Origin: Amoebophrya sp. A120
Lineage: Eukaryota; Protista; Dinoflagellata
NCBI GenBank assembly: GCA_905178155.1
Contig: CAJINV010000019.1
Span: 976,913-1,040,912, forward strand
Direction: 5' to 3'
Length of the DNA stretch: 64,000 bases
The first letter of the stretch is position 1; each line of letters begins with the position of its first letter. Position numbers and translations under genes: made by a program. This document shows, piece after piece, positions 6,688-32,396 of the stretch. The notes below the pieces were generated by a model. It was not told where the DNA came from. It searched no databases and saw only the letters and a list, made by a program, of their open reading frames with translations.

Positions 6688-8505
6688 TATTGTATTTAAA
6701 AACGTCCCCACCCCATTACTATCTATTATATTCATGCGAAAAAAGAGGTCTACAGAGGATAGAAGAGAGGTGGCCGAGAGGTCAAAAAGAGGTGAAAAGA
6801 GGTCAAAAAGAGGTCGACAGAGGTGGAGAGGTGGCGCGGGAGGTCATTCGAGGGGGTGGCCGAGAGGTGGCGCGGGTATAGCCAGCCGAACCGTTCACCC
6901 TAAAGCCGCGCCTATGGGGGACGGAGGTGGCCGAGAGGTTCGGGAGAGGGTAAGCGAGAGGGGGACAGAGGTGCCGAGAGGTTGCGCGAATAAGGGCGAA
7001 CCTCTCGCGCACCCTCTGGGCCACCTCTCGGCCACCTCTGTAGACCTCTACCGGCGAGTATAGCCGGACTATTAGCAACACCTCTCGGGAGAGGTCAAAA
7101 AGAGGGTCTGCGAGAGGGGTAGAAAAACCCGAATCCGCCCGGCACGAGGCAGGCTGATTCTTTTGTGGCCTTTTCAACGGGATCGGGCCCCAATGGGCCC
7201 GGAAATAAAAAAATCATGAATCCCAAAAGAAAAACGAAAAAAAAAATTTTTGCACTGCCGCCCTATTGTGCCAAACCACTCCGCCGGGGCTCGCTCGATA
7301 GGAAATCTGTAGGCCCTAAAATAACGCCGGGGCTTTGTCAACAGGCTGCGGACCTGTGGGCTCCGGGGTTTTCGAAGAACTGCGCCACATGAAATCGAGC
7401 ACGCAACTTTTGTTCGGGCAAACACAACGTCACCGAAAAAAAAGAAAAACACCGAATAAATTTGCGCCAAAAAATTGCTTTCTTTGCGACATGAGTGCGA
7501 CACGGGTGCGACACCGGTGCGACATTTTTCGGGTGCTTCCTGAAAAAAAAACCACGGCCGAAAGCCGATCTTTTTTAATTATTTCAGATTTTTTGTCGCA
7601 ACAAAGGCGATTTTTTGTCGCAGAATTAATTGGCCACTCGCCCACCCAAAACTTTCCCACCCAACATCCCTCTCCCACCCCGAAGCACACACCGGCAACA
7701 TGGGCTCCCTCTGCCGGCCCCACTCCAATCCCTTGCGCCCAAGCCTGCTTTTCCCGCCCAACCCACAAACCCAAGACACACAACCAGAAAAAGAAAACGC
7801 ACCAGCGAGCGGCTGCAAGAACTGCAAAAACCCTGCGAAAACTTAAAAGCGCGAAAATTTTCCGGCTTTTGTGATTTTTTTGCTTTTCTGACTACTGGGG
7901 GCCGATCCCGTTGAGCCTTTTCATGCATAAGCTGGCCCGAACCGTCTCGCGCACCCTCTCGCGCCACCCTCTCGCGCACCCTCTCGCGCCACCCTCTCGC
8001 GCCACCCTCCCGCGCCGGGCGGCTTCTGTTCGCCCCCGGCGTCCTTTGCAGCTGCTCCCTGCGCAGAGCGCCCACAGGCGCGGGAAGCGCGCAAGTGGTC
8101 GTGCGGGTTGGCGCCGCGCAAACAGGCGGCAGGACTCCAGTATGCTTCATTATGCATATTAGGCCTGTGGCATTGTGGCCCGATCCGCAAATAGACCTGC
8201 CCCGCCCCAACAGCCTTGCGCCCCGGCATCAGCCGGGGCATGGCTGGTAGTTGTAATGCAAATCTGCATGCTGAGAATGTTTCTCATGCGGAGCCCCAGG
8301 AGAAGCATTTTCTAGTCGTGTTTCGGAATTTGTCATGATCCAATCAGCATGGTAGACTAGATCTGTGATGCTGCTCAGCTAGCTCAAACAGCACTACGCT
8401 ACGAGTCCAAATCTGTCATGCGAAACAGCCAAAGCTTGTGGATTTGTCTAGCCGATTCCCCATCTTGACTATGGGGTGGGGAAGTTTTTACATAGGATAC
8501 CGATA
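6688..8505. mobile_element. Introner family B expanded by a nested 1.5 kb insertion
   Basis: TIR AAAAACGTCCCCACCCC / GGGGTGGGGAAGTTTTT; DR CGGGC; body similar to 39583-39862. Confidence 0.75.
6716..8247 (+). mobile_element. Non-autonomous Helitron-like element nested in an introner
   Basis: Splits the family-B introner sequence CCCCA|TAGTTG between A and T with no TSD. 3' hairpin GCCCCGGC-ATCA-GCCGGGGC (8220-8239) followed by CTGG. Internal GAGAGG/CCTCTCGCG repeats. Confidence 0.55.
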
Positions 8506-11500: not shown

Positions 11501-14500
11501 TTTTGCATTACAAATCTGCCCTGCCGGCTTTTTTCTCTAGGATAACGTCCGCACGTAGGCCAGGGAGTCCGACAAAGCCGCCAGTTTCTCGAAGTGGGTC
11601 ACGTGCTCTATAACCTGCTCAGGTGTTACAATCTCAAACGTTACAATAGAGTATGGAAATCTGTGACGCAAGAGTGCATGATCTAGCCAACTCACTCTCA
11701 TAGGATTGCGCATGACACGTTCCGGAGCCCCGAACCCCACTACCATCTGGCGAACTTTGTATTGCAAAAAGTGGAACGCTGTGCGAGTCTGTCATGCTCA
11801 TCATGCAACACAAAATTCCAGATTCTATTGTAACGTTTGAGATTGTAACGTTTGAGCAGGTCATATGCTCCTGCTTGTCCGACGCTTCGTGAATGGTCTG
11901 CACCACGCGGCCGACCAGTAAGTTCATGATCCCCAGCGACGTGACGAGCGTAAAGAGGAAGAAAAACACCAGCATCGCGGGGTACCCCGGGTAAAGCTCT
12001 TCGTCGGTCGTTTCGAGTGAGCGCAGGTTCATGTAGTTGTTGTAGTCCGATTGTTGTTCTTCTACTTGCTGCGAACCAGGCATGAAGATCACCTCGCCAA
12101 CATCTGCGCCCTGCAACTCGCGTAGCTCCAGCAAAGCAGTGCTGTTCCAACTGACTGCTGGCTCGGTGACGTATCCTGAGGAAAAACGTCCCCACCCCAT
12201 AGTCAAGTTGGAATCTCTGCAACACAAATCCAGAAGTTTTGGGAATCACGTATGACAAGTTTCTCGCTGTATTGTAGTGCTGGTTAGCAAGCACAACCCC
12301 CGCATGACAAAGCCGTCCCCTGATCCTGTTTGCAGCATTACAAATGCCAATATACGATTGAAAATGCCTCTCTTGGGGATGCGCGTTGCAAATGTTCCTG
12401 TCCTTGCAATTCTGCATGACAACTCTGGGGTGGGGACGTTTTCACTCAGGATATGACGCCTTTTATCGTCGAGACCCAGTCGTCGAGAGTGACAATCCTA
12501 TCGCAAGAAAAAACTGTTTCACTGTGAACTTGTAATGCAGAAACTGTATCTGAGAAGTGTTTGTCTTGCTACACATGCAAGACACTAGATTTTTAGCTGT
12601 GTTTTCTCTTAGAAATATCGCATGGCAAATTTTCTCTGTGATGTAGAACGAACTTGTGATGCAAAACTTGCAAAACCCTTACAGTGAAACACTTTTTTCG
12701 TGCGATAGATCCGCAAAAGGGTGTACATGGCGCGCCCAATGTTGGAAAAGTCCTTGCTGTTACCACTAGTACCTGCGGATGAAGAAAGAAGTGTTGAGCT
12801 AGAAGTACTCGAGGCTGCTGTTGTACCACTAGAAGTAGTTGCACCGCCACTGCTACCACTACTACTCCCCCCGGCAAGAAGAGCATCGTCTTTCCGGACT
12901 TGCAAGTCGCCGACGGTTTGCACCAAGAAGATGCTCGCTGTGTAGGTTACGACGATTAGCAAGATCATCAGAAAGCACATCGCCTCCAACGTGTTTATCA
13001 GGGAGGAAACCAGAAGCCACAGCTCCTTGAATTGGTCCATCAATCGGACCAAGCGGACCAGCCGCAGTAGCCTCAAAATCCGCAAAATGGCGAGAAACGG
13101 AAGATCTGCGTTGAGGTTCAGGTTGGGCACGATCCACTCGTCCACCACCCCGATAAAGATCAGGGTGAAGTCGAACTGCACCCACCCTTTCCGGAAGGAC
13201 TGTCGCACGCCGTCGAAAACGCAGCGGAGGGCAAGTTCCACCATGAAGATGAGGAGAAACAGCTGGTTCAGCCACCAGGTGGTTTGGCGGTCCTCCAGAA
13301 ACGCAGCGTCACTGCTTCGCACGTGCGGGTTGTTCGCTTCAATGCCCATGGTGACCGCGTTCGCGACGACGAAAAAGCCGATATTCCCTGAAAATCAACC
13401 ATCCCCAACCCCATCCAATTTGTCATGCAAAACATGTACGGAGCGGAGTAACAACTAGGCCAACAAACTAACTCGGCTCCCCGAGTTAGTCACCCGGGCG
13501 GCCGAATCCGGGCGGCCGGACGACTAACTCGGGACTCTAAGCGCGAAAGTTTTTCTATATAGCGACTCCGGGGCCGACGACTTCGGTCAGAGGTGTGTTT
13601 TGAAAACGTCCTGGCAACATATGCAATTCGTGCGGTTCTGTACTGTGCATAGTTTTTGTGCTTTCATTCAAAAACTCGCTTCAGAAGTCGGAAAGCGTGT
13701 AAAATTGTTGCGCTTCGTAAGTGTTAACTTCACGGCAGGGAAATCTCGTCGTGACAAAACAGGCACTGCCTGCGTTGAAAAGAAAGCGAAAACGTTGCCC
13801 CGTCGACTTTCAAAAAAGACCCCAAGCGCACAAATAGCATGCACAAAAGCACAAATCCGCGCAGGGAATTCCGGCTGTCACAGACTGCGCGATCGTCGGC
13901 CCTTGCCAGCACGAGTTGCCTGCTAACTAGGTAGTGGTCGCCACGAGTTACCTGGCTAGGGAACTCGTGCGCGGCGACCAGTCTCGGTCGCCCGAAAAAC
14001 TTTCGCGCTTAGAATCCCGAGTTAGTCGTCCGGCCGCCCGGATTCGGCCGGCCGGGCGACTAACTCGGGGACCCGAGTTAGTTGGCGTAGTTGTTACTCC
14101 GCTCTAGGAAAATCTGTGTTTGTGATGCATAAATAAAATGGATGGGGATGGTTAATTTTTTTCACGGAATAGCCGAAAGCTAAATCAAATTTGAGCCACG
14201 AGCGGAGCTCCGCGTCCTCGCTCTTCATTTGGAGGATCTCGGGGGACATCTTCACCGCGAACTTGCGCTCCCGCTTTTGCTCTTGCATGTCGGACTGGAA
14301 ATAATTGCGATCCTTTGCCGTGATCAGCCGAGATTTGACCGCACGGGATGACGATTTCCCCGTCCCGGCAGCTCCGTCGTCATTCATCAACTCATCCATC
14401 GCTTTTGTCTTGCCCAGCTGCTTGCCGAATTTGTGGAATTGGTCCACCTTCTTGTTCCTCATAGTGGATGGCTTGCTCTGGCTTTGGCTTTTTTGCTCCT

Positions 14501-16005: not shown

Positions 16006-17005
16006 TTATTTCAGTGCCTGTTTTTTCAGCAGTGTCTGATTCCTTTCGACCTTTGCTACGTTGCGGTCCGTCGTTTCATTCAGTTTGTCGAGCATGTCGT
16101 TTTGCATCCCGAGGGTTTGATTCATCGCAAGGGATTTTTCTTTCAACCCGCCCACAAGCTGCTCCATCAGCGCCATGTCCTGGTCCTCTCTGCTCAATGG
16201 TGCACCTCCTGGCGGATTCGCATAATTCGTGTAGTTTTTGCTAGAGCTATTAGAGTGCTGCGGTTGCTGATTGTAAATTAGCGCACTTTGATGTTGTTGA
16301 GGTGGCGGAGGTTGGGGTGGCTGTCCTCCATGTAGTTGTGCGTTTTTTCCGCTCGAGTCTGGTGCTGCTGCACGACCCGCCGCATTTTGTGCGCTACTTG
16401 ATGTAGTTTGTTCCCCTCCATCTTCCTCGAGTCCGAATGTCGTGCTTGTTTGTTCGTATGCGGAAGAGAAGGCGCCTTTCACGCGACCGAAAAAGGAGGT
16501 CATACCTGCAAGCGGTTGCATTGGTCGAGGACGTGTGGTGAAACAGACCACTTTTATTAGCCTATTCGTTTTACTTATTTTGACTGACACAGAACGAATT
16601 CTTTCAGCAGAAATTCTACAGAGCTCATTTGCTTCTCCTCTTTCGCAGAACTAAGAAGTATACCAAGAAGCATTTCAATTGAACATCCGCACCCATATTC
16701 TTACCTTTCAAGATCTGTTCGCCCATGTCCAGATTGCTTTCCGTTGCGTCCGCATACGCCTGAGTCCGCTGGATCTGCTCGGTTTGGGAATCCAAAGTCA
16801 GGCACGACTTTGTCGCAATCTCGTCTGTTTGCTTCAAGGTCGTCAAAGTTCTTTGCAGGCTCTCACTTGTCTTCTCCCGATAGTAGTCGGCCGAGTGGTG
16901 GTGCGACGGAAGATTTTGGGTCTGGTACGGTTGTATGCTGTTGCTCGACGAAGAGCTCGCGGATGAAGATCCCCTTCCGCCGGGGCCTCCAAAGGGTGCA
17001 GTCAT
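16006..17005 (-). CDS. SNAP-25/SNAP-29-like Qbc-SNARE
   Basis: Two SNARE heptad motifs (TLDSQTEQIQRTQAYADATESNLDMGEQILKGM; MNQTLGMQNDMLDKLNETTDRN) joined in frame by a GT-AG intron at 16506-16704. Confidence 0.8.
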
Positions 17006-17921
17006 TTGGTTTATTCTGGTGGGCTCTTTAGATGTTGATCCGTGGTGTTGTTACTTACTAGTTTTCCTTTTCTTCAATCTCAACTCTAACCAGCACGACG
17101 GAATAGCGACAAACTACAGACAACGTATAGAAAATGTCGCCACCCACGCTAGGCGAGCAGAAAGAACTGTACGAAGAAATACAGGCACTGGCACCTCGAC
17201 ATTCCTTTACCGTCCTGCCGCTCGTCCAGGAAAAAAAAGCCACTCGTGTGAAAAACGTCAACGTCATCAACCACCAGGAGTAGATGACAAAAACAAGGGT
17301 TCAAAACGAATTGAAGCCCAGGAAGTGTGGCTTCAACATCTCACATCAAGCCCTAATTTGCCGACTATGGTTGAGTTTGTGAAAAGCTATGAGCTCCAAA
17401 TCAATTACAGTCTGTATTGTTTGGTACTTCTACACTGTCAAAAAGTCTGAGCCAGGATAATGTACAGGGGTCGTGGTCTTTTGTGCACCATCATACAATA
17501 ATTAAGAAGAGAGATTGTAGCCCATGTGTGAAGATAAAAATACTCGCCAAAGTTGTCCTGTTTTGATGTCCAAACTTATCATATACGATTTCATTTACTT
17601 CTCACGTCACCAATACTGTGACTGAGGTTCGTCTGTGATGTCCATAGGAATAACTCAAAAAAAAAAATGTCAGTATAAAGTGGTCGAGTGAGATTAAGTA
17701 AGGTAACTTCCTGTCTGATAGTATCTTTTTGCATATGAGAATTAGGGGCTGCAAAATCCACGGGTTGATAAATGTGTTTTTTTTCTGATCGACGATAGAA
17801 TTCTTTATCCAGAGCTGTCGAATTTCTTACAGGGAGACCACAGGAGCTCGAATTCATCATCCGTCATACTCTAGTTAGTGCGCGATCCAACGAAAATTTT
17901 CCGATACCCACCAGAAGCAAA

Positions 17922-20900
17922 TCAGAACAACAGCCCTTGTCTCAGCGCGACCACGAGCGGCAAGTCCGGTTTTTCTTCCACCTTCTTCACTTCCTCAATC
18001 GGGATCAAGTTTTGTGCTCGCAAAACCTCCGCGCAGAGCGCAAAACCCCGGTATTCGGCCAGGTCGACGGCTAGCTCGCCCCGCAAGGTGCGGATGTGCA
18101 GGCTCGGTTTCCGCTGCAGCAGCAGATCCAACACTTGTTTTTTCCGGTTTTCCGCCCGGAAAGCCCGGTCGTGGAGAACGTTGGCGAGGAGTATCAGGCT
18201 GAAAAGGGGAAAGGAGTTTGATGTAGGTTGTCATCTTCATGTTGCGAGACCATCAGCATCACGTCGTGGCAGTTGGACTGCAGATGCAGAACATGCATCC
18301 ATTTTTTCCATTCCTCTGCTCTTGACATGTTGCCAACAGAAGATATTAACAGAAAAGGACACGACCGCTATAGTACAACAGCGAAGTCGTGCTGAAAAAA
18401 CTGCGAGATGAAAAACGATCTAGTACGTCCGACTCGCTGATTCACTCGCAGCAATGGTGTTTTGGCACCATTCCCACGATACTTTTCCATGCATGTATGT
18501 TGACCGCATCATGCAAAGCAATAAACAATGAGATCACATGATCGCATGAAAACTTCGCCGCGCTCCGAACTTCCTTTCCGAGCGTAGCAGCGTGTAATGG
18601 TGTCCACCCCTTGCAATCTTGATGATTGATAGCGGCGCCTGGATTTTTTTTCAAGAGGGATACTTGTGAAGCAGCACACGAAGGGTACCCGGGACGCGAA
18701 GGGTACCTAGAACAGAAAAAGGCACAGAAAACAGACAAAAAGACGTATGAACAGAGAAGTTTTGTCTGACCACGCGCAGTGTTTGTCTGTGCTGCGCGGC
18801 ACATACAACTTTTTCGTATGTGGAGAAGAAGCGGCGCGGTTCTGATTGAATATTCATTCTAGTACAAGGAAAACGCACGCAGAAACGGCGCACTGCGGTT
18901 TTTCGTCCATCACAAGAAGGGGCGCTCGCGCGCGCAGCACAAGCTTGGCGCGAAGAACAACCGAGCGAGGGCGGAAATCGCATAAGAAGCACTGCCCTCC
19001 TGGGCGAAGCGCGCGCGACAAAAAGTTGAGACACCTCCACAACGCCGAAAGCGGCGATGCTTGTCCAGAAAAGCGTTACCCGCAGCGAAGTCCCGACCGA
19101 TCTGTGGTGAGGTAGCGGCGAACTGGCGGTTGACGCACGGGTGGACCAGGTCCGTGCTTCGCACAGCAGACTGCTGCGCAGGCGGCTTCGCAAAGGGAGC
19201 GTCAGGTGCTGCTGGTTGTGGGCGGCGCCGGGTTTAGCTTTGGTGGTTGTGACGGGGTCGGAACCAGGCCGGGGCGGACGCAATTCTGGCAAGCGCGCCA
19301 CGATAGTGTCGCGGTGGTGTTTCTACAAAAAGTTAGCGACGCGCAACGCCCGAGAAGACAACACTTCGCACACGAAAAACGCGCCCCACAGGGCTGAACT
19401 AAGCGGCCGCGCCTGTGCCGCGCAGCGAACTCCGAAACTGCGACAGAAGGGCGCCAGAAAGAGCGCAGTACGTTCAAAAACTGTGTCAATCTGTGGGTTC
19501 AAAATCTTGCTGCGAACAGAGCACGCAGCACACACCGGCTTTTCAGCATCCGAAGTTGTTGCCGAAAAAGCATGGCACCGTGGAGAAACACGGGAGCCTT
19601 GCGAGAGCAGGTGGCGGGCGGGAGTCCCGAGCTCAAGGTGAGCAGCACGGCCATTTTATTTTTTTTACGGTTCCAAAATAGCGCATTTGGGCGCGCTAGT
19701 GAAGATTCGTTGCCGCGCGGAGAGTAGGGCGAGGGGAAAGACCTCGCCCACGCTGCCACGGTGGGTATGTAGAAGCGTAGTACGGAAGCGCTAGACATAG
19801 GCATAGAGCATAGTTGCAGAGCACAGGTCCCAAGCGGTCCACAAGGGTATCCAAATAAATAGAAGCTTTACAGAAGTCACGTAGTAGCACTCGAGAAGAA
19901 TAGAAACTATGAAAATAGGCAGAGGCAGAATGTAGCTATTGTGTAAGTACTTAGCAGCGCGAGTCTTGGTGGTCCATGCAAAACAGGGGAGGGTGGGGAG
20001 GGGAGACGGGAGCCCAGGATAGCAGGTAGCACTCCGTCTGGTTTGGGCGACCGCGCGAACGTAACAGGGCGCACCAAACCACTCTTGGCGTGCTAGCTGC
20101 TCTGGGACATTGTGGACATCGTGTTATATTTCTACCCGAAATAAAATGTCGCCCTGCATGCAAAAACGTAAGCCCCCGCGCCTCGTCACGGCGCTCGCGC
20201 AAAGCGGGGGCCACCACAGGGGGAGGGCGCCCTGTGGTGGGGGGCTGGAAAGCCCCCGGGAGTATTTCTATAATTGCGGCCCCTAGGATGCAGTCGTTGC
20301 CAGCGCGCCCCTGAAGTGAACTTGTCGCACCTATAAAACCGGGCTTCCCGCCATAGAGCCTCGTGGCAGGCGCCGCATCGCGGAGTGCCCACAAAAACGA
20401 GCGGCACCTGCTGGGAGGGTGAAATACATCGCACAAAGAAGAAAGGAACGGGAATAGGCGAGCGCCTATCTACACGCGTGGGCCCGCCGCGTGTACACAG
20501 GAGTTCGCCGGCGGCTGGGAAGCGCGCACGCCACGGAGTACGAGGCGTGCGCGCACCAGTCAGATCCGACGAAGGGACGACTGGGAGCATATCTAACTGT
20601 GTGCGATGAAGAACAGGCTCATCAGGGGGGGCCGGCGGCGGGGATGGGCAGCAAAGAAATGTCTAAAACGTTTCGCATTCCTAAGCGCGCTGAATTTCTG
20701 ATTACGAGAGCGGCAAATCTAGAAGAGAGAAAAAAAGCGATGCAGAGCGTTGGAGGCGGATGTGCAAAAGTGCCAGAAAAGAAAAACCGTCGACAGACAA
20801 AAGAACTAAGAAAAAAGGAGAGCCTCCGGAGGAAGAGAGAAATATGCCTCCCCCCACGAAAAGTGGGGGCAGGGGGCACCGCGTTCCCCTTAGGTCTACC

Positions 20901-23900
20901 GGGGGCGCCGCCTCCCAAGTTCGGGCGCCCCGCCTATCTCTAGTTGCACATCGGTACTCGCCTTTTCTCAAGAAGGCAGGGGAGCGACCTACTTTTCCCC
21001 TGGCGCATGTTTACCGCATAAGCGCAAGCGGAACGAAGGGCGCCGGAACGATGGAAAAACCCTACCCACAAATATCCACAGAACGGCAGCACCCAACGCC
21101 CCCCCCGCGCACGGATTAGGCATACGCCGTCACCGAAGACCGCACGGTAGGGATCGCAATCTTTTTGGCCGGGAGGTGTTAAAAGAGAAGGCGAAAACCA
21201 AGGCGAACGCGGGCCAAGTATGCCACGCTTGCGCCAAGCGCAAGTCACCGTCGCGACGGTGAGGGCTACAGGTGAACGAAACCCTGCGCCCCGAGAGGGG
21301 CCAGGGTTCGAGTTAAGAACGAAAGGGACCGGAGGTAGAGCAAGATACTAATCGACACACAACAACGGTAGTACGTAGAGCGCCGCAAAAGGTTTGTGGA
21401 CTGGTGCCTTGACAAAGAAAAAAACTCCTGCGTGGAGGAGCAAAGAGAGCAGCTAGAAAAACACACCGCCCAGGGACGGCGGGCTACATACTACGGACGG
21501 GATCCCCTGTCTGAACTTTTCGAGTTTCCTTCGCAACGACGGTTCGTTGTAGCGATTTTTTGAAAAAAAAAAGAATGACAACTTTTGGGACAAAATGCCT
21601 TCGATGGTCGTACACGTACGGGAAGTTTTGAGCTTTCATTTTTTCGGAAGGTGGGGCACCGGGATACAATTTTCGGACTTTCATGCTGGGCGAGCAGGCA
21701 CGTAGCGCTGCGCCCACGAGTCTATAACTATATTTTTTTTGTATGTGGAGTTTTTCATAGGCTTATCTTTACTGAACTGTAGACGAATGTGCGGCGGAAT
21801 GACAGAACTAGCGACGCCGAACGCGCAAGAAAACGACCTATAGCAGGGTGAGAAGAAGTACAGCGAGAAACTGATCAAGAGCGATGAAAATTTTCATTGT
21901 CGACGATGCCCCGCTACACATGGCGGGGCGCGTGCCCTCAAAGCTGGTCGTCATAGCCAGGCAGGGAAGCAGGAAGAGGGACGCGCGACACACAAGTGGT
22001 GACCGACCCAAGGTCGGACGCCTGCGCCGCCTCGGCAGCTTTCTCCGCGACCTCAAGGAGCAACCGCGCCCGGTCGCGCAGCGGCTCCGGGATTTCCCGC
22101 AAATCGGGGCCCGCCCGGTCTCCTCGTTTCCCCCAGCGAAACATCCCCCCAAGGAGACAAGTGGCGCCTGAAAAGGTTCCATACGTAGCTCCCTGGCGTA
22201 ACCGCACGCCCACCCCCGTGAGCTGCAAGTAGACGCCATACCCGCCGCCGCGCCCGGCCGCTTCACGGAGCAAATTACCAAAAAGCGGCCCGGGGGGCGG
22301 GCGGTCTTCCACGTTCGCTCCCGCCCAAGGGTAAACTGTGATAGCAAGGGCCTGCCCGTAGGCGTAAAGCAGCAGGCGGTGTCCACGCGAAAGCGCCTTG
22401 CACTGCAATAAAATCCCCTCGACGTGGAAATCCCGGCGCGGCTGAGCGCGCTTTGTTGCTAGGTTGGGCAACGCAACCAAAGCAACGGGCGCCGCGAGCG
22501 GAAGCGGGTCGGGAAAATTCCCGAACCGAAACCCGCCGGTGGGGAAGCGTTCTAAACCCCCGCCCCGGGGATGCGCAGCTTCCCCCGCACCGGCCGAGGC
22601 CGGCTGCGCTTCGGGAACAGCAGGGGAAGGAGAAGTGGCAGCCGGCCCAAGTGGCGTTGGGACAACAGGAGGAGATGAAACTGCCGGCGCCGGCGCGGCG
22701 ATGGCCGGGCCAACGTCACTAGGAAGCCCAACGCGGTCGGGCGACGCCCCCCGGTCCAGCTCGACCGACGCAACGGAGCGCCGGAGGCGCTGCCGTTTTT
22801 GCCCCTGCGAGGGCGTAGACTCCACCACGAGAGTCGTCCCGTCGATAGCTGCGACACGGAACCCCAACAGCCAGTTTGCTTCTTGCACCCGTTGGCCTGC
22901 CACCGCGCGCAGGTTGCCCGCCCGGGGGTTGCGGACTTTTACCCGGGTGCCAATCGGGAAAAGCCGCAAGCGGTCAACGACCGTCCCCCCGCGGGCCTGG
23001 GTGTACCTGTTAACACGCCGCTCCGCCTCCGCCATGGCCCGCTCGTTGGCCACGTCCCGCAAGGCCGCCAAGGCCGCGGACCGCGGAGGCACCGCCGGCG
23101 GCGCCGCGGGACTGGCAACCAAAGGCGGAGACGACGGCGCCGGCGCCACCGCTGCGGGCGGGCCGGCGGGCGCGACGGGAGCGCCCGCGGCGGGTGGCGC
23201 CGCTTCCGCTGCCGCGGCAGCCGGGGGCCCTGGAGATGGAGGCGGCGGAAGCGCAAGCGCCTCCGCCACCGCCCGGGCCTGTCGTGTGTGCGGCGCACAC
23301 CCCCGGACGAACGTCCAGGGGGACTGACCATGCTTCCACGGCTTCGGGGCGGTGTTGTACCGAAACACCGCCCGCGGAAGCAGGTCAGCCCACGACTGGC
23401 CCGGGTGCTCCAGAGCCAGCGCCGCCAAGATTTTGGACAACGAGACCCACACCACCTCCATGGCCCCGTTGCCCTGCGGCCGCCCCGGCTCCGTGAACGA
23501 CACCGAGCAGCCCCACTCCGAAAGGAGCAGGCCCCACTCGGTGCCGTTGTCGCAAACAACATGCTCCGGCAGCCCCCAGCTGCTCTCCAGCGGCGAGTAC
23601 GCGAGCAGCGTACAAGCCGCGGAGTGGTCGGCCGCCGCGGCGGCCCACAACTCCCCGCCGACGGCGCAGACGGCGCCGCAGATGGCGACCGCCTGGCCGG
23701 GGGCGGGGTTTGTGGCAGTGGGGGCGACCCGGCAACGGGGCATGATTTTGCGGTCGATGTGCACTTTCCGGTAGACCTTTCCGGAAAGTGCACTGTGTTC
23801 CGCCGTGAGCGCCGCCGCGCTGTACGGCGGGACCGGCGCCTTCACCACCGCGCGCGCGGCGCAGACGCGGCAACGCGCCACCACGTCTGCGCAGATGCGA

Positions 23901-26900
23901 CTCGCGTTGGAGCCCCAGTAGCCCGCTTCTACTAGGGCGGCCAGTGTGGAGTCGCGCCCGCGGTGCGACACCTCATGAAGTTTGGCCGCAGCGGCAGCCA
24001 GCTCGTCATCATTTTCAAGCACAGTGAGCCACCCAGCTGGCTCCTTGAAGATTTCCACCCGAGACTCCACGCCGGAAAGAGCGGTCCCCGGCTTCAGGCG
24101 GTAGTCCTTGCCGTGCTTGCGCCACCAAACGCGCTTTTTCTTGGTCGGCAACGACAAGACGAGCGGCTGCTGGGCCCCCTCGCCCACTAGCACGCGGCGA
24201 ATTTCGTCCCACGAAACCGCGCGCGCCGCCCGTTTGGAGTCGCCATCGAGCGGCGGGGTGTCGGCGAGGCCGGACGCCACTTCAGGTCCCTCGGCGCCGT
24301 CGCTCGACTGCTCTTCACTGCCCCCTTGCGCGGAGAGCGGCGTCGCAACGGACGCCTCGTCGTCGCTCAGCAGGTTGACAACCTCCGAAAGAGGAACTGC
24401 TGCCTGTGCCGGGGGCGGGAGCGCAGAAGCGGGCGCACCCGCCGCTGCGTTCACACCCACAACAAGTGCCGCTTCCGCTCGACGCCGTTTGGTGGACGGG
24501 CTGTCACCACCAGCAGGCGCGAGAGGAGACCCAACTTCTGGGTCGGCAGGCTCTTTGCCGGGAGGGGGGCCCGGCGCACCCCCGGCTGGCGAAGGGCCGC
24601 CTGGCGGGGCGGGCGGTGCAGTTACGGTTTCCACAGAAGCCGCGTCGCCCCGTCGCCGCTTGGCGACCGGGCTTGCGCGCTCCTGGGAGGTGGCGTCCCG
24701 GGGCTCGCCCGGGTTCAGAAATTCCGCGGCCTGCGGAGATCCGGCCTGGCCTCCCGTTGGCGCAGCTGGCTCCGCAGGAGCCGGGCGAAGGTCAAACGCC
24801 CCGGCGGGCGCGAGCTCCCGGGGCCCCTGCGTGAAGTCGGGCAACGCAGGACCAGGAGAAACCGGGGAAGCCCATGCGTTTGCTGCCGCGGCGGCGGCGC
24901 TACTACTCCCAACAGCCGCCCCGAACGGCGGCAGCGGCTGCCCGAGAGCTGCAAAAATGGCTCTCTGCCCGGGGGTGAGGCCCCGGCGGGCGCGAAGGTA
25001 GGGCGCCACCTCGATCGCGCCCGCGGCCTGCGCCGAGCGCACCCGGCAGACAAACCCCCCCGCGCCGGGTTTTGGGTTTACGGTAATCGGGACGCGCCCG
25101 GCCTGCCCCCGCTGGCAGGCCGACACGTCGACGCCGTGCGTGTCCTCATACAATTGCCGGCGAACCTGCTCGGCGGCTTCCCCGGGTTTATCGGCAACCA
25201 CAAACCAAAACTGGAACTTTTGCGCGCTTGTCTCGGTAACCAATCGAGGCTCCCCGGCGCCGGAAGGAAATTCCGGGGGGGACGGCGCGGCAGCATGGTC
25301 TATGTCCACCATCACAAAAGTCCTGTCCGCCGCCAATGGCAGAAAGAACAGATGCGCGCCCTGCTGCTGCGCCTCCACCGCAAGACGCGGCAGGGCCGCC
25401 GCGATTTCCCCGCGCGGAACCTCGCGGCGGTAGCCCTGCCTGCCGGCAACCTTCACGGTGAAGGCAAACCCCGCCGCCTCTGGGAACGCCGTGAGAAGGT
25501 GCCCAGCGGCAACGCCTGCGCGCAGTCTGTGAATTTCGGCCCAGTCCCAGTTGCTGGTGTCGTGGGCGGGCGCCGGTGGGGCAGCCGGCGGCACCGGGGC
25601 CGGCGCAGCCGGAACGGCAGACGCCACAGGGGCACCGGGCTGCGCAGCGTCGCCGCTGCTGCTACCAACCGGGACCAGCGCTCCTCCCGACGCCTCATCC
25701 GGGAATGGAGTGGGTTCCGGTAGCTGCAGGCTAAATTGCGCCCGCAGTTTTTGTAACCAGCTGCTCTGGCGCTCCGACAAGGAGCGCAACCAGGGCGCCC
25801 GCACGAGGAAATCCCGCGCATAGCCCGCGCCACTAAGGGCATCTACGGTGACTGCCCAAGCAGCCTTTTCCCGCACGCGGGCGGCGAAGGCCTGCAGCCG
25901 CGCCGAGACGCCCGCGCCCGGGGCGGCAAACTCAACCCGCGCCCAGGCAGACCGCTCGGCATCCGAGAAGGACGCGTCCACGGCGATTGCGTGGGCGGTT
26001 GCCGAGGCCTGCAAGCCCTCCCACTTGCGCTGCATTTCTAGCAGCACCTTCGCCGTTGCCGGCGTGGCCGGCGGTGGGTTTTCCCCCTCCCACGTGCCCG
26101 GGCCTGCGCGGTCACCTAGAAAATTTTCTTCAAACTCGCTCATAAACGACGCGAGGGGGCTAGCAGCCCATTCCTGGAGGCGCTCTGCGACCTCCTGCTG
26201 GTCGATTTCCCCGCCCAACATAGCCATTTTCTGAAGATACTCCCCAATTAATACTTTTGCCAAATAAATATATTTTGTTGCCCCGCCCCGGATTCCTTAT
26301 ATAAATCTTTACTTTCCTGTAGGTGTGCTGCCCAGATAAATCGCCGCTTCTTTGAGCGAAAGTGTAGTTTTATCCTGTGCAAAAATGTCGCCGCCCCATA
26401 AACACAAAGCTCCCATCTTTATCCATTTTGCATGCCAACCATGCCCTGTGTGCGATCTTGTACACTAGCATCACAAAGTTAGCGCATCTCACTGATTCCC
26501 GCATCAGAAACTGCAAAACACGACGAGGGCATGCTCTTCACGGGGCCCCCCGGGCGAAACTCTGTTTTTATTGGATGGCAGATTTGCATGACAGGTTTGG
26601 GGGGTGACGTTTTTGCTCAGGATAAACACTATGGTTAGTGTCTTTGAGTCTTGGATACTGCCCGCGGCTCGAATACTGCTGCCCTGCACTGCTGCCGATA
26701 CTTATATAGCAATGCGACTAAACTGTTAATACTGCTTGTTCAAAAACAAAACCTGATCTACGATAGTGCTGCCGATGTTTACACTGCTTCAAACTGATTC
26801 AAATTGATATGCTTTGCTGTGAGCGATGTTTGCTTAGGGATGCGCTTGTGGAACGTGCTGGCACTGATTGGTGTAAAAAGATAAAGCTACTGCCTGGAGT

Positions 26901-28560
26901 TAGAAGTCTGCTGACTACTGATTTGCTGCTCGATGTGTGCTACGCTTGGGACCTGACTGCGCATTTTACTCCGCCAGAAGCATGTCGACAATAGCTAGCG
27001 CGCGCGCGCGCGTTCGAGGGCGATGTGACCGAAGGGCCGCACATAGGGCAGTGAAGTCCTGCAGGCAGGGCGATGGAAGATGTACAAGGACCGAACTGCA
27101 GCGCACTCTGGCTGCTGCTCACACGGAGACTCGCTCTCTATGGCCACTCTGTTTCTGCTAGCAGTCCGTTGGAATGCAGATGACCGAGCGACTGCCGACT
27201 GTATATAGTTGTAGTGCGGCGCGTAGTGCGTCGTAGCGCGACCGCGGCCACCCGGAACGAAGCGGGGCTAGAGCGAAACCATACAAAACGACGGCGCGGA
27301 GGCATTGTAGGTCCCTTCGCGTCCGGGGGCCCCGGGAAGTCCTGGGGGCCCCGTACCGGACGGTAGAACCAGTACCGCAAGGGTCCGCCGGGAAAACAGC
27401 GGACCAGAAAACACAACAAATTTGTATGAGAAAGCGACTTATAGGCAAGGTTTCTTCTAGGACAATTAGGGGCAGGCCCCTTCGTGTCCCGACATACAAA
27501 TATAATCTGGGGGGTCTCAGGAATACTGGTTCACTTGTTCAAAAAGTGAAGCAAGTAGTACAGTAGCATGAAGATGAAGATGCACTTGCACATGCACGAC
27601 TAGTCCGCCTTCTACAAAACTACCCCAAGTACTAGCACTGCCAGACGTCGTAGCATAATTCATATATAATAATTGCAGGGTCTACCTCTACAGTAAATAT
27701 TTTTATCGACAAAAATCTATTCACACCGTTTTCAAAGCACAGCTCCACGGTTGCCGGGTCCCCAGCGGTATGCATTGCAAAAGTATCGTACTAGGATAAA
27801 TCGCATGACAAATTTGCTCAGCATGAGAAATGAAAGTTGTCATGCTGTTTTACCTTGGAAAGGAGATTTGTAATGCATGATTGCAATTACTACGAGTACA
27901 ATACTTTTGCACAGGATAATCGGCGCACGCGTCCACGAGTCTGTCGTTCCAAAACGTGGTCGGTGAAGGGTTGTAGTCGGAGAGCTATCAAGTGCAAATA
28001 TGTCTGGGTCTGGAAACTTGTGATGCCAATGTCCGAATGATACGCAACCTGTATCAGGGGGTCGCGCATGACAAGTTTCTGAGCGGCTATCTATGTGTAG
28101 CGTGAACCGCATGACAAATGGCCTTTTTGCGTGACAAGCAAGTGGCACTGTAGCGCGCCAAGCATGACAGACTTTTCTGTCTTGTCGCCCAAGCATCACA
28201 AACTTGCTTTCTTCCAGACCCGAACATATTTGCGCTGGATAAGAGCGCGATGTTCACAATGTACGGAAACTTTGCTGCACAATAGGACTCTTCGCGGGAC
28301 CGGCCAAGCAGGGCGTACGGGACATAATATGCAATGCAAAAGTATCGCAGTAGTATGAATTGCATTACAAACTCCCCCAGCACTACAAACTAAATTTGTA
28401 ATGCGGATTTACCTTGAGAAAGAGTTTTGTGATGCATAAATGCAATTACTACGAGTACGATACTTTATTTGCAGAGGGTACATAAACCGGGATCGCGATT
28501 TCGAAATTCTCGACTGTGACGTATGGAAGGGGACGAGTGGAGGATTTTCAGAGTCACCAT
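17922..28560 (-). CDS. Ankyrin-repeat protein, split by 3 introners and a 9.1 kb transposon-containing intron (18639-27726)
   Basis: The splice product reads RLVDACAAGDPATVELCFENG|AAINHQDCKGWTPLHAATLG, then VLDLLLQRKPSLHIRTLRGELAVDLA. Phase-1 GT (27726) and AG (18639) match. Confidence 0.75.
21938..26263 (-). CDS. 1441-aa polyprotein: RepB'-like (AEP) primase domain + HHCC zinc finger + DDE retroviral-type integrase + GPY/F-like C-terminal module
   Basis: Primase motifs FVMVDID, PRLVTETSAQKFQFW and GRVPITVNPKP (~25030-25400). Zinc finger LHEVSHRG...CRVC (~23860-23980). Integrase VHID, VCDNGTEW, PQGNGAME, then W.DLLP.AVFRYNT and FPIGTRVKVR. First ATG at 26227. Confidence 0.88.
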   Translation of the reverse strand: MAKVLIGEYLQKMAMLGGEIDQQEVAERLQEWAASPLASFMSEFEENFLGDRAGPGTWEGENPPPATPATAKVLLEMQRKWEGLQASATAHAIAVDASFSDAERSAWARVEFAAPGAGVSARLQAFAARVREKAAWAVTVDALSGAGYARDFLVRAPWLRSLSERQSSWLQKLRAQFSLQLPEPTPFPDEASGGALVPVGSSSGDAAQPGAPVASAVPAAPAPVPPAAPPAPAHDTSNWDWAEIHRLRAGVAAGHLLTAFPEAAGFAFTVKVAGRQGYRREVPRGEIAAALPRLAVEAQQQGAHLFFLPLAADRTFVMVDIDHAAAPSPPEFPSGAGEPRLVTETSAQKFQFWFVVADKPGEAAEQVRRQLYEDTHGVDVSACQRGQAGRVPITVNPKPGAGGFVCRVRSAQAAGAIEVAPYLRARRGLTPGQRAIFAALGQPLPPFGAAVGSSSAAAAAANAWASPVSPGPALPDFTQGPRELAPAGAFDLRPAPAEPAAPTGGQAGSPQAAEFLNPGEPRDATSQERASPVAKRRRGDAASVETVTAPPAPPGGPSPAGGAPGPPPGKEPADPEVGSPLAPAGGDSPSTKRRRAEAALVVGVNAAAGAPASALPPPAQAAVPLSEVVNLLSDDEASVATPLSAQGGSEEQSSDGAEGPEVASGLADTPPLDGDSKRAARAVSWDEIRRVLVGEGAQQPLVLSLPTKKKRVWWRKHGKDYRLKPGTALSGVESRVEIFKEPAGWLTVLENDDELAAAAAKLHEVSHRGRDSTLAALVEAGYWGSNASRICADVVARCRVCAARAVVKAPVPPYSAAALTAEHSALSGKVYRKVHIDRKIMPRCRVAPTATNPAPGQAVAICGAVCAVGGELWAAAAADHSAACTLLAYSPLESSWGLPEHVVCDNGTEWGLLLSEWGCSVSFTEPGRPQGNGAMEVVWVSLSKILAALALEHPGQSWADLLPRAVFRYNTAPKPWKHGQSPWTFVRGCAPHTRQARAVAEALALPPPPSPGPPAAAAAEAAPPAAGAPVAPAGPPAAVAPAPSSPPLVASPAAPPAVPPRSAALAALRDVANERAMAEAERRVNRYTQARGGTVVDRLRLFPIGTRVKVRNPRAGNLRAVAGQRVQEANWLLGFRVAAIDGTTLVVESTPSQGQKRQRLRRSVASVELDRGASPDRVGLPSDVGPAIAAPAPAVSSPPVVPTPLGPAATSPSPAVPEAQPASAGAGEAAHPRGGGLERFPTGGFRFGNFPDPLPLAAPVALVALPNLATKRAQPRRDFHVEGILLQCKALSRGHRLLLYAYGQALAITVYPWAGANVEDRPPPGPLFGNLLREAAGRGGGYGVYLQLTGVGVRLRQGATYGTFSGATCLLGGMFRWGKRGDRAGPDLREIPEPLRDRARLLLEVAEKAAEAAQASDLGSVTTCVSRVPLPASLPGYDDQL
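26371..26624. mobile_element. Family-B-like introner inside the integrase element, with no direct repeat
   Basis: TIR TATCCTGTGCAAAAATGTC / GACGTTTTTGCTCAGGATA; GCATNACA motifs; flanks AGTTT/AACAC. Confidence 0.75.
27769..27918. mobile_element. Introner family C
   Basis: TIR; DR AGCGG/ATCGG. Confidence 0.8.
27986..28241. mobile_element. Introner family A
   Basis: TIR; DR AGAGC. Confidence 0.85.
28328..28480. mobile_element. Introner family C
   Basis: TIR; DR CATAA. Confidence 0.8.
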
Positions 28561-29017
28561 TTTTTTTGGGGGATTTGTCCCTGCTTCATCTTCCCGCTAG
28601 AGAAGCTAAATCATTTCAAGCAAGAACGTCAATGCCAAATATTTGAAATTGGACTATTTATTTGCAATTAAGTATGCAGTCCATTCTTGCGACAGCATGC
28701 GTTGTCGCGTTCAGGACTCAGGGCGAGAACATCCTCAACATGCAAGTAGGATCACGATCAGCGAAACAATATTACAAGGTTCAAGGCCTGTTGTATTTTA
28801 TTATTTCGACTCAGACACCCCGCGCGTGACAACTTTCATACCCCATCGCGCAAGCAATCTCGATACGGTCGACCGGTCATCAGCTCGACCAGTTGGACTT
28901 TAGCTGGTTTTATTTTGTTGATATTGTCATTGTGGTTGGTTTTTGCTTCTGCATAAAATCCAACACCAACTACGTTGCAAGAATGAAAAACAAAGAACGA
29001 CACGACAGAGCGATTTG

Positions 29018-30401
29018 TCAACTACTGTAAGTACTTGGATGCGCGTAGCCCTCCTTGTCGTTGAAGGGGCGCACGTCGTTTTTAATCGCCATCTGGTGCA
29101 CATCTTCTATCTCGAGGGTCAGAAACTCCCCGAGAAATATCCTTTTTTCCACGGCGCCCGTCGCTAACGCCAGGGAGTCAATGGAGGAGTTTGTTGATGT
29201 GATCGAGGTCCTGGTTATGGTGGATTGCTGCTCCATATTTGACTGCTGTGTCGTTGCATTCGGTGCAGCATGCACCGCAAATGTGTCTGGGTCTGGATTT
29301 TGTAGTGCGGGACTTCAAGGACAACATCACTATGTATCTCTATCAACAAGACCTAATTTGCATGAATACGTCGATTGGGCAATTTTTCTGTCGTGCTGAA
29401 TACGCTTGAATCCGCAAAAAGCTCCTCAGGGGAATTCCTCATGCTGTTACGCCGTACAAGCAGCCAGTCTGCAATGTATCAGAAACACGACAATTTTCTG
29501 GAGGACCCAGACATATTTGCAGTTGATACGCAGTTGAACCGGCGGTCTGTGGAGGTAGTTTATTTCTCAGAAGTTGCTACAGCGACGTGTAGTTGTGCAA
29601 GTTAGTTATAAAAATGCGAGTCATGCCTACAACGTTGTCATGCACAAACAGAATAAAGCAAGCAGTTACAATACCTGAAACGACTCGTGGACGACGCATT
29701 TCCCCATCAGGATGTCACTCCAAATGGCGTTGTCTTTTCCCACTTTGAGAAACGCGCTGACGCTGGTATCCTGTGTGTCAAATCTACTTGCTCCGACATG
29801 AGTTTAGCGTGCTGACATGATGACAAGCTGGAATAAAACATACATCTTCGTATTGGCTGTGGCACGACCTAGTAATCGAAATGAAGTCTACTTCTCTTTG
29901 CAAATCTTAACACTACATTCTTTTTTCAGGCGCCACTTGCCTGAATGAAAAAACTTAGCTGCGCCAAACAAATAAGTATCACAGCTGCAGTTGGTCTTCT
30001 TCTTGATTTTCGTGTCAGTTGAATAAATGATTTATTCAGCTATCCGATTTAAGCGCATGATGAGCAAGGGGTTGTCACACAGGATACTTTGCCTTTTTGG
30101 TCCAGAAAAAGACGCAAACGTTTTCCCGGTTGTCTGGATACCGCTTATCCGTCCGGTTTACCAAGTCTGCAAACCCGCGCCATACCTGCAGCTTGGACTC
30201 CCTGTGCACTACAGTGTTCTGCTCTACGTCCTCGTCGTAAAGCCTCCTGTACTCGATCGGCTCCTTGCCCCACATGTCCTGCGTCCGCGCCCGGCGGTCG
30301 AAGAGCTCCGACAAGGTCGGGGCCTCCCGCGTCGTCCCAATTTTTTTCGCGGCCCCCAGCATCGTCGCGCCCGCGCGCTTCGGGTCGGCGGTTACCGTCA
30401 T
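29018..30401 (-). CDS. Hypothetical multi-exon protein; exon linkage and 3' end uncertain
   Basis: ORF 30075-30401 starts with ATG, and ORF 29018-29268 adjoins an introner at 29269-29528. Confidence 0.35.
29269..29528. mobile_element. Introner family A (diverged)
   Basis: GTCTGGGTCTGG / CCCAGAC ends; DR TGCAG/CGCAG. Confidence 0.7.
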
Positions 30402-32396
30402 GAGTCACTGTTATATTAATGCCCTGTCTTAACAAAAGAAGAAGAACCTAGCTGTTATTATTTCAATTATTAGTGTTGTTCGCTCAAATGAAAAATCTTG
30501 AAGCCACGCCATCTCCTTTACTTCGACGCTTGTGGATTGTGTATACCGTTTGTCAAATAATATCAGTAGCCACTTTCTCCTCAACAAAGGTACTACCCCC
30601 ATTGATTGTGGTCCTCACAGAGGTCAAATGAAAAACGCTTCGTGATCTTCTCCCGATCCATAGACAGAGCAAGTACAAGGCGAAAAGTGAAAACCGAACG
30701 ATTGAAAAGTACGCTAACTTGCTTCCCCCACATCTGCAATCGTCGATGAAACAGAATCAATCGATCCACCCAGTGCGAATGAAACTGATGAAGCACGAAC
30801 GGACGATCCGCGGAATCTGCAGCTTTGTGGAGGTCCCCAACGAAACTACTGTGTCTGAGTCTGAACATGCACATGGGCTATCACATCCACGCACAATAAA
30901 CTCGTCGTGGGTCTAAAAATTAGTTGTAAACCGAGCGCGTACAGGTACAACGACACCGAGATTAGTACTTAGACCACAAGAAAGAGAAAAACGATCAGGA
31001 GGGGCCACTGCCCAGTGATTTGACAGCAGCAGCGCATGCTCTAGTAACTACAGAACTCAGCCAGGGGGCAATCTTGATAGATGATGATGTTGCCGCTGAG
31101 CGCTTCCGAAGATTCGTACATTCCATCTCTACATCATACATCATCATCATGTTATAGTAGTGCTTGTCCTGTGAAAGTTTCTGCCGTTCTGTTCATTCTC
31201 TTCCATTTTTTCTTGGACGTGCACACGAGCCTGGTGCTTCCCACATTTCGGTGTCATTCTACAGTCCAGGTTTGATCCTGGATGCGATAGAAAGCCACCC
31301 CTTGCCGTACTTCACTTCTCTTCCACTTGGCTTTTTTTTTCTTGCTCTTCCACCAACATTATACAAAAAAAATAACTGAAATACTAATTCGTTTTTGTGG
31401 AGCAACAAATAACATACGCTTCGCGTTACGGTCTCATAGCTTTCCGTTCTTCTTCTTTATCTTTTGGTTTTGCCTGCTTCGTTGAAAAAAATACATTCAG
31501 ATTCATTGCGCAGCTTGTTGATGAGACTAAGGGCGGCCGCTGCATGGAACGGAGTGCAACGGAGATTGTGGGGCGGAATGCTTGCGTGTTGGTAGCACCC
31601 ACAACATCCGATATTATGTCCTATGCAAAAACGACCTGCTTCGTCTCCTTCTTCAGAGCGTCCAACCGACCCTAAGTTGTAGTCAGATTCCGAAGATTTC
31701 TTCATCTTGTTTTTGTAGTTTCTCGTGCTAACAAACCTTTTACATTCATTTTCGAATGACAATAATCTTAATTGAAGGTTAAATATATGAAAGTTGATTT
31801 CGTTTGATCCCCAATGTAGGCTTAGTTGTAAGCTCCTGACGAAGTAATAAATCTCTGCACTGCAAATGCTTTCTGCTCAGCGCCATAGTTGGATTAAGTC
31901 ATCCAAGGTGATGAATGTACTTATTCTGTTGCTGTTCGGCGCTGTCGCAGTAAAATGTCCTTGAATCTTCTTGATCATTTTTACATCAGTGCCTGGATTG
32001 GAATTATATCCCAAGAAGTAGTTGATTGAAAGGATATCGCTGCTCAAGACATGCTCCTTTTCTAGTTTTACATCATGCTTCTTCTCTTTACTTTTTTTTC
32101 TTGTACTTGTTTTAATCATAGTCTTACTCAAGTGCGTTCAATACAATTTCCCCCGTGATGAATCAAGTGCATCGGCTGGGTCCTAGTAATTTATCATTCT
32201 CGTTGGGATGACAGTGAAAAGGGGCGGCTTTGTTCGAAAGTATGATGTGCTTCGCCTCTGTGTATGCTTGTCGTGCCAAGCTAGATGAAGTAAATCTCTA
32301 CATTGCAGAGAAACGCTTTGGGAAATTGAAATCCTACATCTCTTATTCTTTTCTCCTGTTTCAAGAAGGATGATCATACTTACATTTACTACCGAT

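Follow-up and report, generated by a model that had tools for sequence, protein, structure and literature searches.

Where does an integrase without a reverse transcriptase (RT) obtain the DNA that it inserts? Retroviral-type integrases normally receive linear DNA from RT, and for the RT-less integrase elements Ginger, TDD, and GingerRoot the source of the donor DNA has, to our knowledge, been assumed and never shown. The question is raised by a locus of the dinoflagellate Amoebophrya sp. A120, within a stretch of 64,000 nucleotides (contig CAJINV010000019.1, positions 976,913 to 1,040,912; hereafter the window, whose first letter is position 1). There, a single open reading frame (ORF) fuses a RepB'-type archaeo-eukaryotic primase (AEP) to a retroviral-type integrase (c-integrase). 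A first-pass annotation, made from the letters alone, had proposed a DNA transposon with this fusion, and the proposal was borne out by TG...CA ends, a 4-bp duplication, the lack of long terminal repeats (LTRs), and one intact frame; we regard an integrase-type DNA transposon with a fused AEP as very probable. A primase-polymerase fused to an integrase makes the donor-DNA question testable with one protein and a point mutant.

The frame runs uninterrupted on the minus strand, stop to stop, from 21938 to 26296, with its stop at 21938 and its first ATG at 26227. The 1,441-aa intact ORF initially described is therefore uninterrupted as claimed but starts at a TTG (26263), and it measures 1,429 aa from the first ATG; residue numbers below follow the 1,441-aa translation (P0001). 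It had also been called intron-free, which holds for the coding frame but not for the 5' leader of the gene, where an intron is spliced. GC content is about 69% in the ORF versus about 48% across most of the window. All motifs quoted in the first-pass annotation were located in P0001 (HLFFLP at 304, FVMVDID at 316, ETSAQKF at 344, GRVP at 389, and NPKP at 396), and a Pfam search with the whole protein gave four weak matches, in the order RepB_primase, Integrase_H2C2, zf-H2C2, and rve. The frame and its domains are as follows.

21938..26227, minus strand: single ORF, 1,429 aa from the first ATG
25694..26227, minus strand: N-terminal domain, P0001 aa 13-190, without a Pfam or meaningful PDB match
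25031..25525, minus strand: RepB'-type AEP catalytic domain, aa 247-411 (PDB, Pfam, profile, Atlas, Foldseek)
23861..23977, minus strand: HHCC zinc finger, H763, H767, C798, C801 (match to prototype foamy virus [PFV], Pfam, motif positions)
23339..23764, minus strand: integrase catalytic core, D837, D905, E936 (PFV match, Pfam, motif positions)
22748..22966, minus strand: putative C-terminal module of the integrase, SH3-like (from the sequence alone; Pfam gave no relevant match)
22019..22480, minus strand: beta domain at the C-terminus, a likely OB fold for binding single-stranded DNA, a lead only (Atlas)

The presence of a RepB'-type AEP domain with intact catalytic residues is confirmed. The best PDB sequence match of the excised region is RSF1010 RepB' (3h25, E 3e-4), Pfam RepB_primase (PF16793) matches at E 1.2e-4 (22.4 bits, under the 24.3 cut-off), and RepB clusters in the Atlas match at 0.96. 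The first-pass annotation had expected a structural search to return this fold, and Foldseek placed 3h25/3h20 at ranks 1 and 2 (probability 1.00, E 0.011) from a weak model (pLDDT 49). An hhalign comparison with a subfamily of relatives described below gave 98% probability and E 2.5e-13. Residues D320/D322, D379, and R390 align with RepB' D77/D78, D134, and R145, which have been shown to be catalytic (PMC8567376; for this and the other published works, our comparison extends to the portions of text that were available). The window protein thus has the three aspartates and the arginine of the PF16793 catalytic domain, as does RSF1010 RepB' (3h20/3h25; PMC8567376), from which it differs by a canonical DxD in place of DD and the loss of W50.

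The HHCC/DDE integrase is likewise confirmed as genuine. All residues of the finger and the D-D-E core are present, with D837 in VHID, D905 in VCDNG, and E936 in GNGAME, and the region matches PFV (foamy-virus) integrase at E 6e-6. The Pfam matches anticipated by the first-pass annotation were both obtained (rve, E 7e-4; Integrase_H2C2, E 1.5e-3), but each fell under its cut-off. A GPY/F-like module had also been claimed; the literal GPY/F is absent, as is Pfam support, and the pattern of this region, which we take to be SH3-like, is without database support. For the C-terminal ~150 aa, the named clusters listed by the Atlas represent OB-fold families (RPA-like and POT1), scoring 0.88-0.91 on 116-130 features in common; the single-sequence model was poor (pLDDT 48), with Foldseek E values of at least 0.17 and VIA Z scores of at most 3.4, and speaks neither for nor against such a fold. 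An OB fold that binds single-stranded DNA is a lead only. The early account of the layout stood for the AEP and integrase and had overlooked this domain and the element ends. The N-terminal ~180 aa matched neither a Pfam family nor any PDB entry meaningfully, and a gag-like identity for it found no support in these searches. In line with the first-pass annotation, Pfam found no gag, protease, RT, RNase H, PolB, or capsid either in the ORF itself or among the 21 other frames of at least ~90 aa that flank it inside the element; matches to an ATPase or a helicase were also absent from these frames. Only one long ORF lies between the element ends.

To place those ends, the flanks were scanned for paired ends with a flanking duplication, which gave the following features.

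18667..27533, minus strand: whole element, 8,867 bp, 62% GC, TG...CA ends (best-scoring boundary pair; X1 depth)
18663..18666, plus strand: CTTG target-site duplication, left copy
27534..27537, plus strand: CTTG target-site duplication, right copy
18667..18676, plus strand: left terminal inverted repeat (TIR), TGAAGCAGCA, an 8/10 match to the right end
27524..27533, minus strand: right TIR, TGAACCAGTA
18672..18703, plus strand: a 14-nt subterminal motif, present twice (CGGGACRCGAAGGG-like; end scan, inverted repeat I20)
27313..27491, minus strand: two inverted copies of the subterminal 14-nt motif, at 27313-27326 and 27478-27491 (end scan)

Two TG...CA boundary candidates with a 4-bp duplication lie in the allowed intervals; 18667-27533 is the better, and a pair equally good arose in 7 of 1,000 shuffles. 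Both junctions can also be read as GA...TC ends with a 6-bp duplication, ACTTGT. We prefer TG...CA because integrases act at CA ends; the end reading and the duplication rest on one insertion. The ends and the duplication argue for integration by a c-integrase with a short stagger, and the subterminal motifs may be integrase-binding sites. There are no LTRs (direct terminal repeat score of 48, shuffle maximum of 51), and an Rfam search returned no match. An initial boundary guess (TGT at 18665 to ACA at 27494/27498) was rejected, as it gave no clean duplication and depth was still high at 27509.

The window was compared with 4 of 10 listed sequencing runs; X1 is DNA, X3 and X6 are RNA by guess only, and summed depth in this comparison is not a copy number. 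From the RNA run X8 no reads fell on the window, an outcome without weight either way. In X1, the long interior contigs have a depth of 41-45 versus 41-42 in the flanks. The end bins are deeper (118 at the left, 138-245 at the right, and 634 at 27509), and the unique right-flank contig starts at 27505, which is inside the proposed end by roughly the length of one word. These contigs and depths support the element boundaries. X1 also holds traces of other copies, one of which defines a further feature.

18957..26996, strand not assigned: breakpoints of an internally deleted derivative (X1 contig joining both, depth 71.8)

This junction indicates a copy from which all of the ORF is missing, located elsewhere in the genome and about 830 bp long if both ends are kept. 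Among 40 of 181 listed differences, nine fall inside the ORF (aa 902-984), in or just past the integrase core. Each of the nine is a synonymous change at a third codon position, as would be expected of a second integrase copy under functional constraint.

The element sits within a gene of its host, and its transcript can be followed in part.

18639..27726, minus strand: host intron of an ankyrin-repeat gene, holding the element (predicted GT donor; AG acceptor at 18639-18640)
26625..26954, minus strand: first, non-coding exon of the element's transcript (X3 record 12)
26366..26624, minus strand: non-canonical intron of the 5' leader, an introner of host type with inverted repeats at its boundaries (removed by splicing in X3; repeat I5)
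18667..21937, minus strand: 3.3-kb region 3' of the ORF (X3 contig; no protein families found)

The host intron would measure 217 nt without the element. X6 record 17 joins host exons from 30463 via 29035 to 18187, X3 record 9 opens with 52 unplaced letters that fit the exon at 18639-18588 (ankyrin-like, by weak Pfam matches), and the end of X3 record 10, at 18610, is precisely the merging point expected at the AG acceptor for a path left unspliced. These splicing paths place the element inside a host intron and in the same orientation as the host gene. Contigs in X3 and X6 lack introns that are retained in X1, and such spliced contigs indicate that the element is probably transcribed. One X3 contig spans 18610-22312, and coverage of the GC-rich middle is thin. 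A reading in which the element is itself a spliced intron was discarded, because the branch point of the RNA graph is the AG acceptor (18639-18640) rather than 18666. From the side of the host gene (16700-30460, minus strand), the element RNA seems to continue past the left end and on into the exon at 18639. Copies related to the leader introner at 26366-26624 occur elsewhere in the window.

The pairing of AEP and integrase recurs beyond this locus, in two metagenome contigs, L001 and L002. A HMMER scan with the AEP domain found 18 proteins (best E 9e-9), taken here as representatives; 17 pass Pfam RepB_primase, none carries an integrase, and those lacking it are mostly on contigs of 0.7-3 kb. 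Two are primase-helicase-type proteins of ~800 aa, the cluster of the best match includes a Symbiodinium protein, and eight belong to one subfamily that shares the 'AFPEA' segment at the N-terminal side of the query. An alignment of four subfamily proteins then retrieved the two contigs. On one strand of L001, an AEP (RepB_primase, E 2e-9) is followed by a helical segment, fingers rich in cysteine, and an integrase of HHCC/DDE type (rve, E 5e-9), interrupted only by one frame change (~660-700) and a 279-nt GT..AG interval; since the length of this interval keeps the frame, the AEP and integrase are likely one gene. In L002, the AEP is accompanied by a helical segment and by fingers resembling Stc1, the final 77 bases translate as integrase sequence, and at its other end lies a second, inverted integrase piece that is 54% identical to the L001 integrase (E 5e-20). 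Both contigs appear degenerate, and their hosts are likely dinoflagellates, judging from 38-41% identity to the Symbiodinium protein. The L001 AEP is 30% identical to that of the window (E 3e-11) and the L001 integrase is 26% identical (E 3e-5; score 91, with shuffles reaching at most 57). The two integrases have PGRPQ-NG in common ahead of the catalytic E and carry AVC where V-D is usual.

Closer relatives were not found. Word-based protein searches were blank for the AEP region at near lengths and for the integrase region at near and shorter lengths. No relatives of the window domains appeared in viral contigs, none of the window integrase in metagenome contigs, and none of the window AEP in phage records; plasmids yielded one spurious TonB match. 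Alignments of the relative-subfamily AEP were blank in viral contigs and prokaryote genomes, as was the L001 integrase in viral contigs. Several details of these relatives were noted in passing. Proteins P0002, P0004-P0006, P0008, P0009, P0011, P0013, and P0020 form a eukaryote-associated, Symbiodinium-containing RepB_primase subfamily with a DxSxxD[WF] helical segment; P0009 has Stc1-like fingers, and two clusters of the subfamily have members on long contigs (4.8 Mb and 781 kb). Positions 1-77 and 2725-2801 of L002 are a perfect 77-nt inverted duplication within integrase coding sequence, likely an assembly overlap of two inverted copies and not a TIR. On the plus strand of L001, beyond a TA microsatellite 3' of the integrase, a frame at 4033-5166 without a Pfam match contains what we take to be an OTU-protease-like motif.

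How does this arrangement compare with described transposons? The first-pass annotation did not recognize the fusion among them, and full-text literature searches, with Repbase and Dfam outside their scope, likewise found no AEP-integrase fusion transposon in the titles and abstract openings that they returned; the word "primase" has no occurrence in the available text of PMC12130899 (main text and SI PDF), PMC7789003, PMC6839031, PMC10045372, or 10.1101/2021.09.26.461848. The nearest systems are Ginger1 and Ginger2/TDD (PMC2836005), which share a single ORF, an HHCC and DDE Gypsy-like integrase, the absence of RT, TG...CA ends, a 4-bp duplication, non-autonomous derivatives, and extra fused domains. 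However, Ginger termini read TGTNR, whereas ours read TGAAG/TGAAC, and Ginger TIRs of 40-297 bp contrast with an imperfect 10-bp repeat and short subterminal motifs. The Ginger duplication of 4 bp (or 5 bp) has its counterpart in CTTG at one insertion, where a 6-bp reading is possible. Ginger elements are also smaller (2.6-7.1 kb and 500-800 aa versus 8.9 kb and 1,429 aa) and are fused to OTU, Ulp1, or PHD domains instead of an N-terminal AEP and a likely OB fold. The CCGG/CCGT target, YPYY, GPY/F, and OTU/Ulp1 of Ginger1 were not found; the target here is CTTG, with no literal GPY/F and no OTU/Ulp1 match (PMC2836005). The element works in a Ginger-like way yet lacks Ginger's termini, and because TGTNR ends and long TIRs are absent, we do not class it as Ginger.

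GingerRoot/IS3EU and IS481EU are integrase-related DNA transposons without RT, some with TG...CA ends, and some IS481EU make 4-bp duplications as here; GingerRoot, in contrast, has 100-150-bp TIRs and 6-bp duplications (PMC6839031, PMC10045372). Polintons and Polinton-like viruses (PLVs), as well as virophages, combine an rve integrase with a self-encoded replication enzyme, which is an AEP in some PLVs (PMC12220804, PMC12721341, PMC3671162). In PLVs, however, the AEP is fused to a superfamily-3 helicase and the integrase is a separate gene, and the genomes of the group, 14-40 kb in size, also encode capsid and ATPase, whereas our element unites AEP and integrase in one gene, with no capsid, PolB, or helicase detected. 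Neither the pPolB or primase-helicase, capsid, and packaging ATPase that mark Polintons and PLVs nor the LTRs, gag, protease, RT, and RNase H that mark Ty3/gypsy were found, with a very divergent gag conceivable in the N-terminal domain. Introner family 38 of Amoebophrya sp. A120 (PMC12130899) is a TIR element with homology to LTR-retrotransposon proteins that was called Ginger-reminiscent but not Ginger; compared by description only, it differs in generating introns, in having several near-identical copies and Copia/Gypsy homology, and in that the available text mentions no primase. We conclude that the element is an integrase-type DNA transposon of an architecture that the literature searches did not turn up, real, apparently intact, probably transcribed, low in copy number, and possibly a new superfamily.

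As to how it moves, we lean toward copy-out transposition with the AEP serving DNA synthesis, a reading to which we give slightly less than an even chance. At each end of the donor, integrases of the retroviral type cleave only one of the two strands. The integrase would nick one strand at a CA end and then join or displace the strand, as related IS3-family enzymes do, and the OB-like domain could hold the single strand. The AEP might lay down or extend a DNA primer for the second strand, host polymerases would complete the copy, and the integrase would insert it with a 4-bp stagger while the donor remains in place. In favor of copy-out, AEP and integrase share one intact frame, the AEP catalytic residues are kept, and the pairing is retained across lineages only ~26-30% alike, which argues for a function. 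IS3-family copy-out includes a replication step (10.1101/2023.06.07.543989), and the AEP protein IEE acts on IS3-family elements (10.1101/2023.06.07.543989; PMC9943667), and there, too, an AEP works alongside an integrase-related DDE enzyme at a replication step; that system differs in being bacterial and in that IEE is a separate AEP-helicase protein. The label "self-synthesizing," given in the first-pass annotation, was an overstatement. Primers made by RepB' are only 10-12 nt, and its helix-bundle domain is needed for priming (PMC8567376); with no bundle detected here and no recognizable helicase or processive polymerase, host enzymes would do most of the synthesis.

A number of observations weigh against copy-out or against the wider kinship of the element. 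No helix bundle was detected behind the AEP catalytic domain by Pfam or by home-made profiles, which were low-power tests: RepB_primase_C had no Pfam match in the window protein, one profile scored -2 with 199 of 500 shuffles equally good, and a second, also negative, missed the Pfam-verified bundle in P0015 too. A bundle permuted to the N-terminus (DxSxxD-like words at ~aa 96 and ~aa 235) was tried and found no support in the profile test. Compared with RSF1010, the element also has no detected RepA helicase or RepC partner and no demonstrated ssi-like hairpin (PMC8567376); the search for a helicase in the ORF and flanking frames was negative, and no strong origin-like hairpin was seen at the ends (six stretches folded, best z -2.4). 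IEE promotes excision and not productive copying (PMC9943667). The spacing from the second D to the E of the integrase core is 31 residues, versus the usual 35-36. Interior depth in X1 is single copy and therefore gives no sign of a recent burst, and X1 is possibly the source of the window itself, in which case it is not independent. By score, the L001 integrase is no nearer to the window integrase than is that of foamy virus. In the AEP tree (19 rows, omitting P0017 and cluster members P0021-P0026), the query sits in an open fork; grouping with the subfamily is neither rejected nor shown (p-AU 0.30), and common ancestry of the window element with L001/L002 is unproven.

Because RepB' cannot prime without a helix bundle and none was detected, Ginger-like cut-and-paste is nearly as likely as copy-out, with the AEP an accessory polymerase for filling the 4-nt gaps or for donor-site repair or end joining, comparable to the OTU/Ulp1 additions of Ginger1. 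The TG...CA ends, 4-bp duplication, and non-autonomous derivative are all Ginger-like, low copy number fits as well, the undetected bundle suits an enzyme that extends primers over one that makes them, and the AEP of IEE fills gaps and joins microhomologies in vitro (PMC9943667). The OTU-like frame downstream in L001, which presumably carries such a motif and has no Pfam match, would also accord with it. However, the integration gaps of other integrases are already filled by host repair (PMC10045372), the OB-like domain would imply long single strands, and a conserved helical segment follows the catalytic domain in the L001/L002 subfamily, as it does in complete primases (compared with the RepB' bundle, this segment gave a homology score below zero).

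Two further explanations appear improbable, each to a similar degree. The locus could be a reduced or recombined remnant, mobile or immobile, of a larger element, whether an LTR retrotransposon or a virophage or Polinton-like virus that has both AEP and rve genes. PLVs do carry AEP-helicase fusions and Polintons rve integrases (PMC12721341, PMC12220804), the two primase-helicase-type proteins among the 18 AEP matches agree with this, the ends can be read as GA...TC with a 6-bp duplication, and the 3.3-kb 3' region is unexplained. Yet a single ORF lies between two intact ends with an intact duplication and no LTRs, the frames match no capsid, ATPase, PolB, helicase, or RT, viral contigs and phage records hold no relative, and the pairing recurs in L001 with a spliceosomal-type intron. 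Alternatively, the window and L001/L002 fusions could be independent, or the AEP could be a passenger without a role in transposition, captured from a stand-alone dinoflagellate AEP gene. Besides the open fork in the tree and the absence of an integrase from all 18 representatives, the architectures differ, with an unknown domain, AEP, integrase, SH3, and OB in the window versus AEP, helical segment, zinc fingers, and integrase in L001. Against this stand the shared PGRPQ-NG and AVC, the intact AEP catalytic residues, the eight of 18 nearest matches that come from the subfamily leading to L001/L002, and the short contigs on which most integrase-less matches lie.

The boldest form of copy-out, an undescribed DNA transposon superfamily that is dinoflagellate-wide and in which one protein both primes its copy with a plasmid-type RepB' primase and integrates it with a retroviral-type integrase, is one that we hold tentatively and with the balance somewhat against it. 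If true, it would be replicative copy-out in a eukaryote that dispenses with RT, PolB, helicase, and capsid, and a living model of how integrase-only elements make a free DNA copy. The element itself brings a replication module of plasmid or phage type into the repertoire of eukaryotic transposons and ties IS3-like copy-out logic to LTR-type integrases. It is also a candidate autonomous DNA transposon in a lineage of massive transposon-driven intron gain, in which, by the available part of the published account, few transposases had been found (PMC7789003).

The surroundings bear the marks of that intron gain. Dense families of introners, which are repeated introns with inverted repeats at their ends and boundaries of non-canonical type, fill 3000-14500, 27769-28480, and 37000-63900; some match 15-20 other places in the window and are very deep in X1. 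Such non-canonical introns bounded by inverted repeats have been described for Amoebophrya (PMC7789003); by themselves they would make a parasitic dinoflagellate of Amoebophrya type the likely host. On the minus strand, Ion_trans (PF00520) exons at 4920-5777 and 12612-13349 belong to one or more voltage-gated channel genes interrupted by introners, a 634-aa ORF without a Pfam match lies at 37176-39080, and an exon containing TPR lies at 60891-61703. Positions 31172-31451 reach a depth of 315 in X6 and have diverged copies in X1, marking either another repeat or a highly expressed small transcript.

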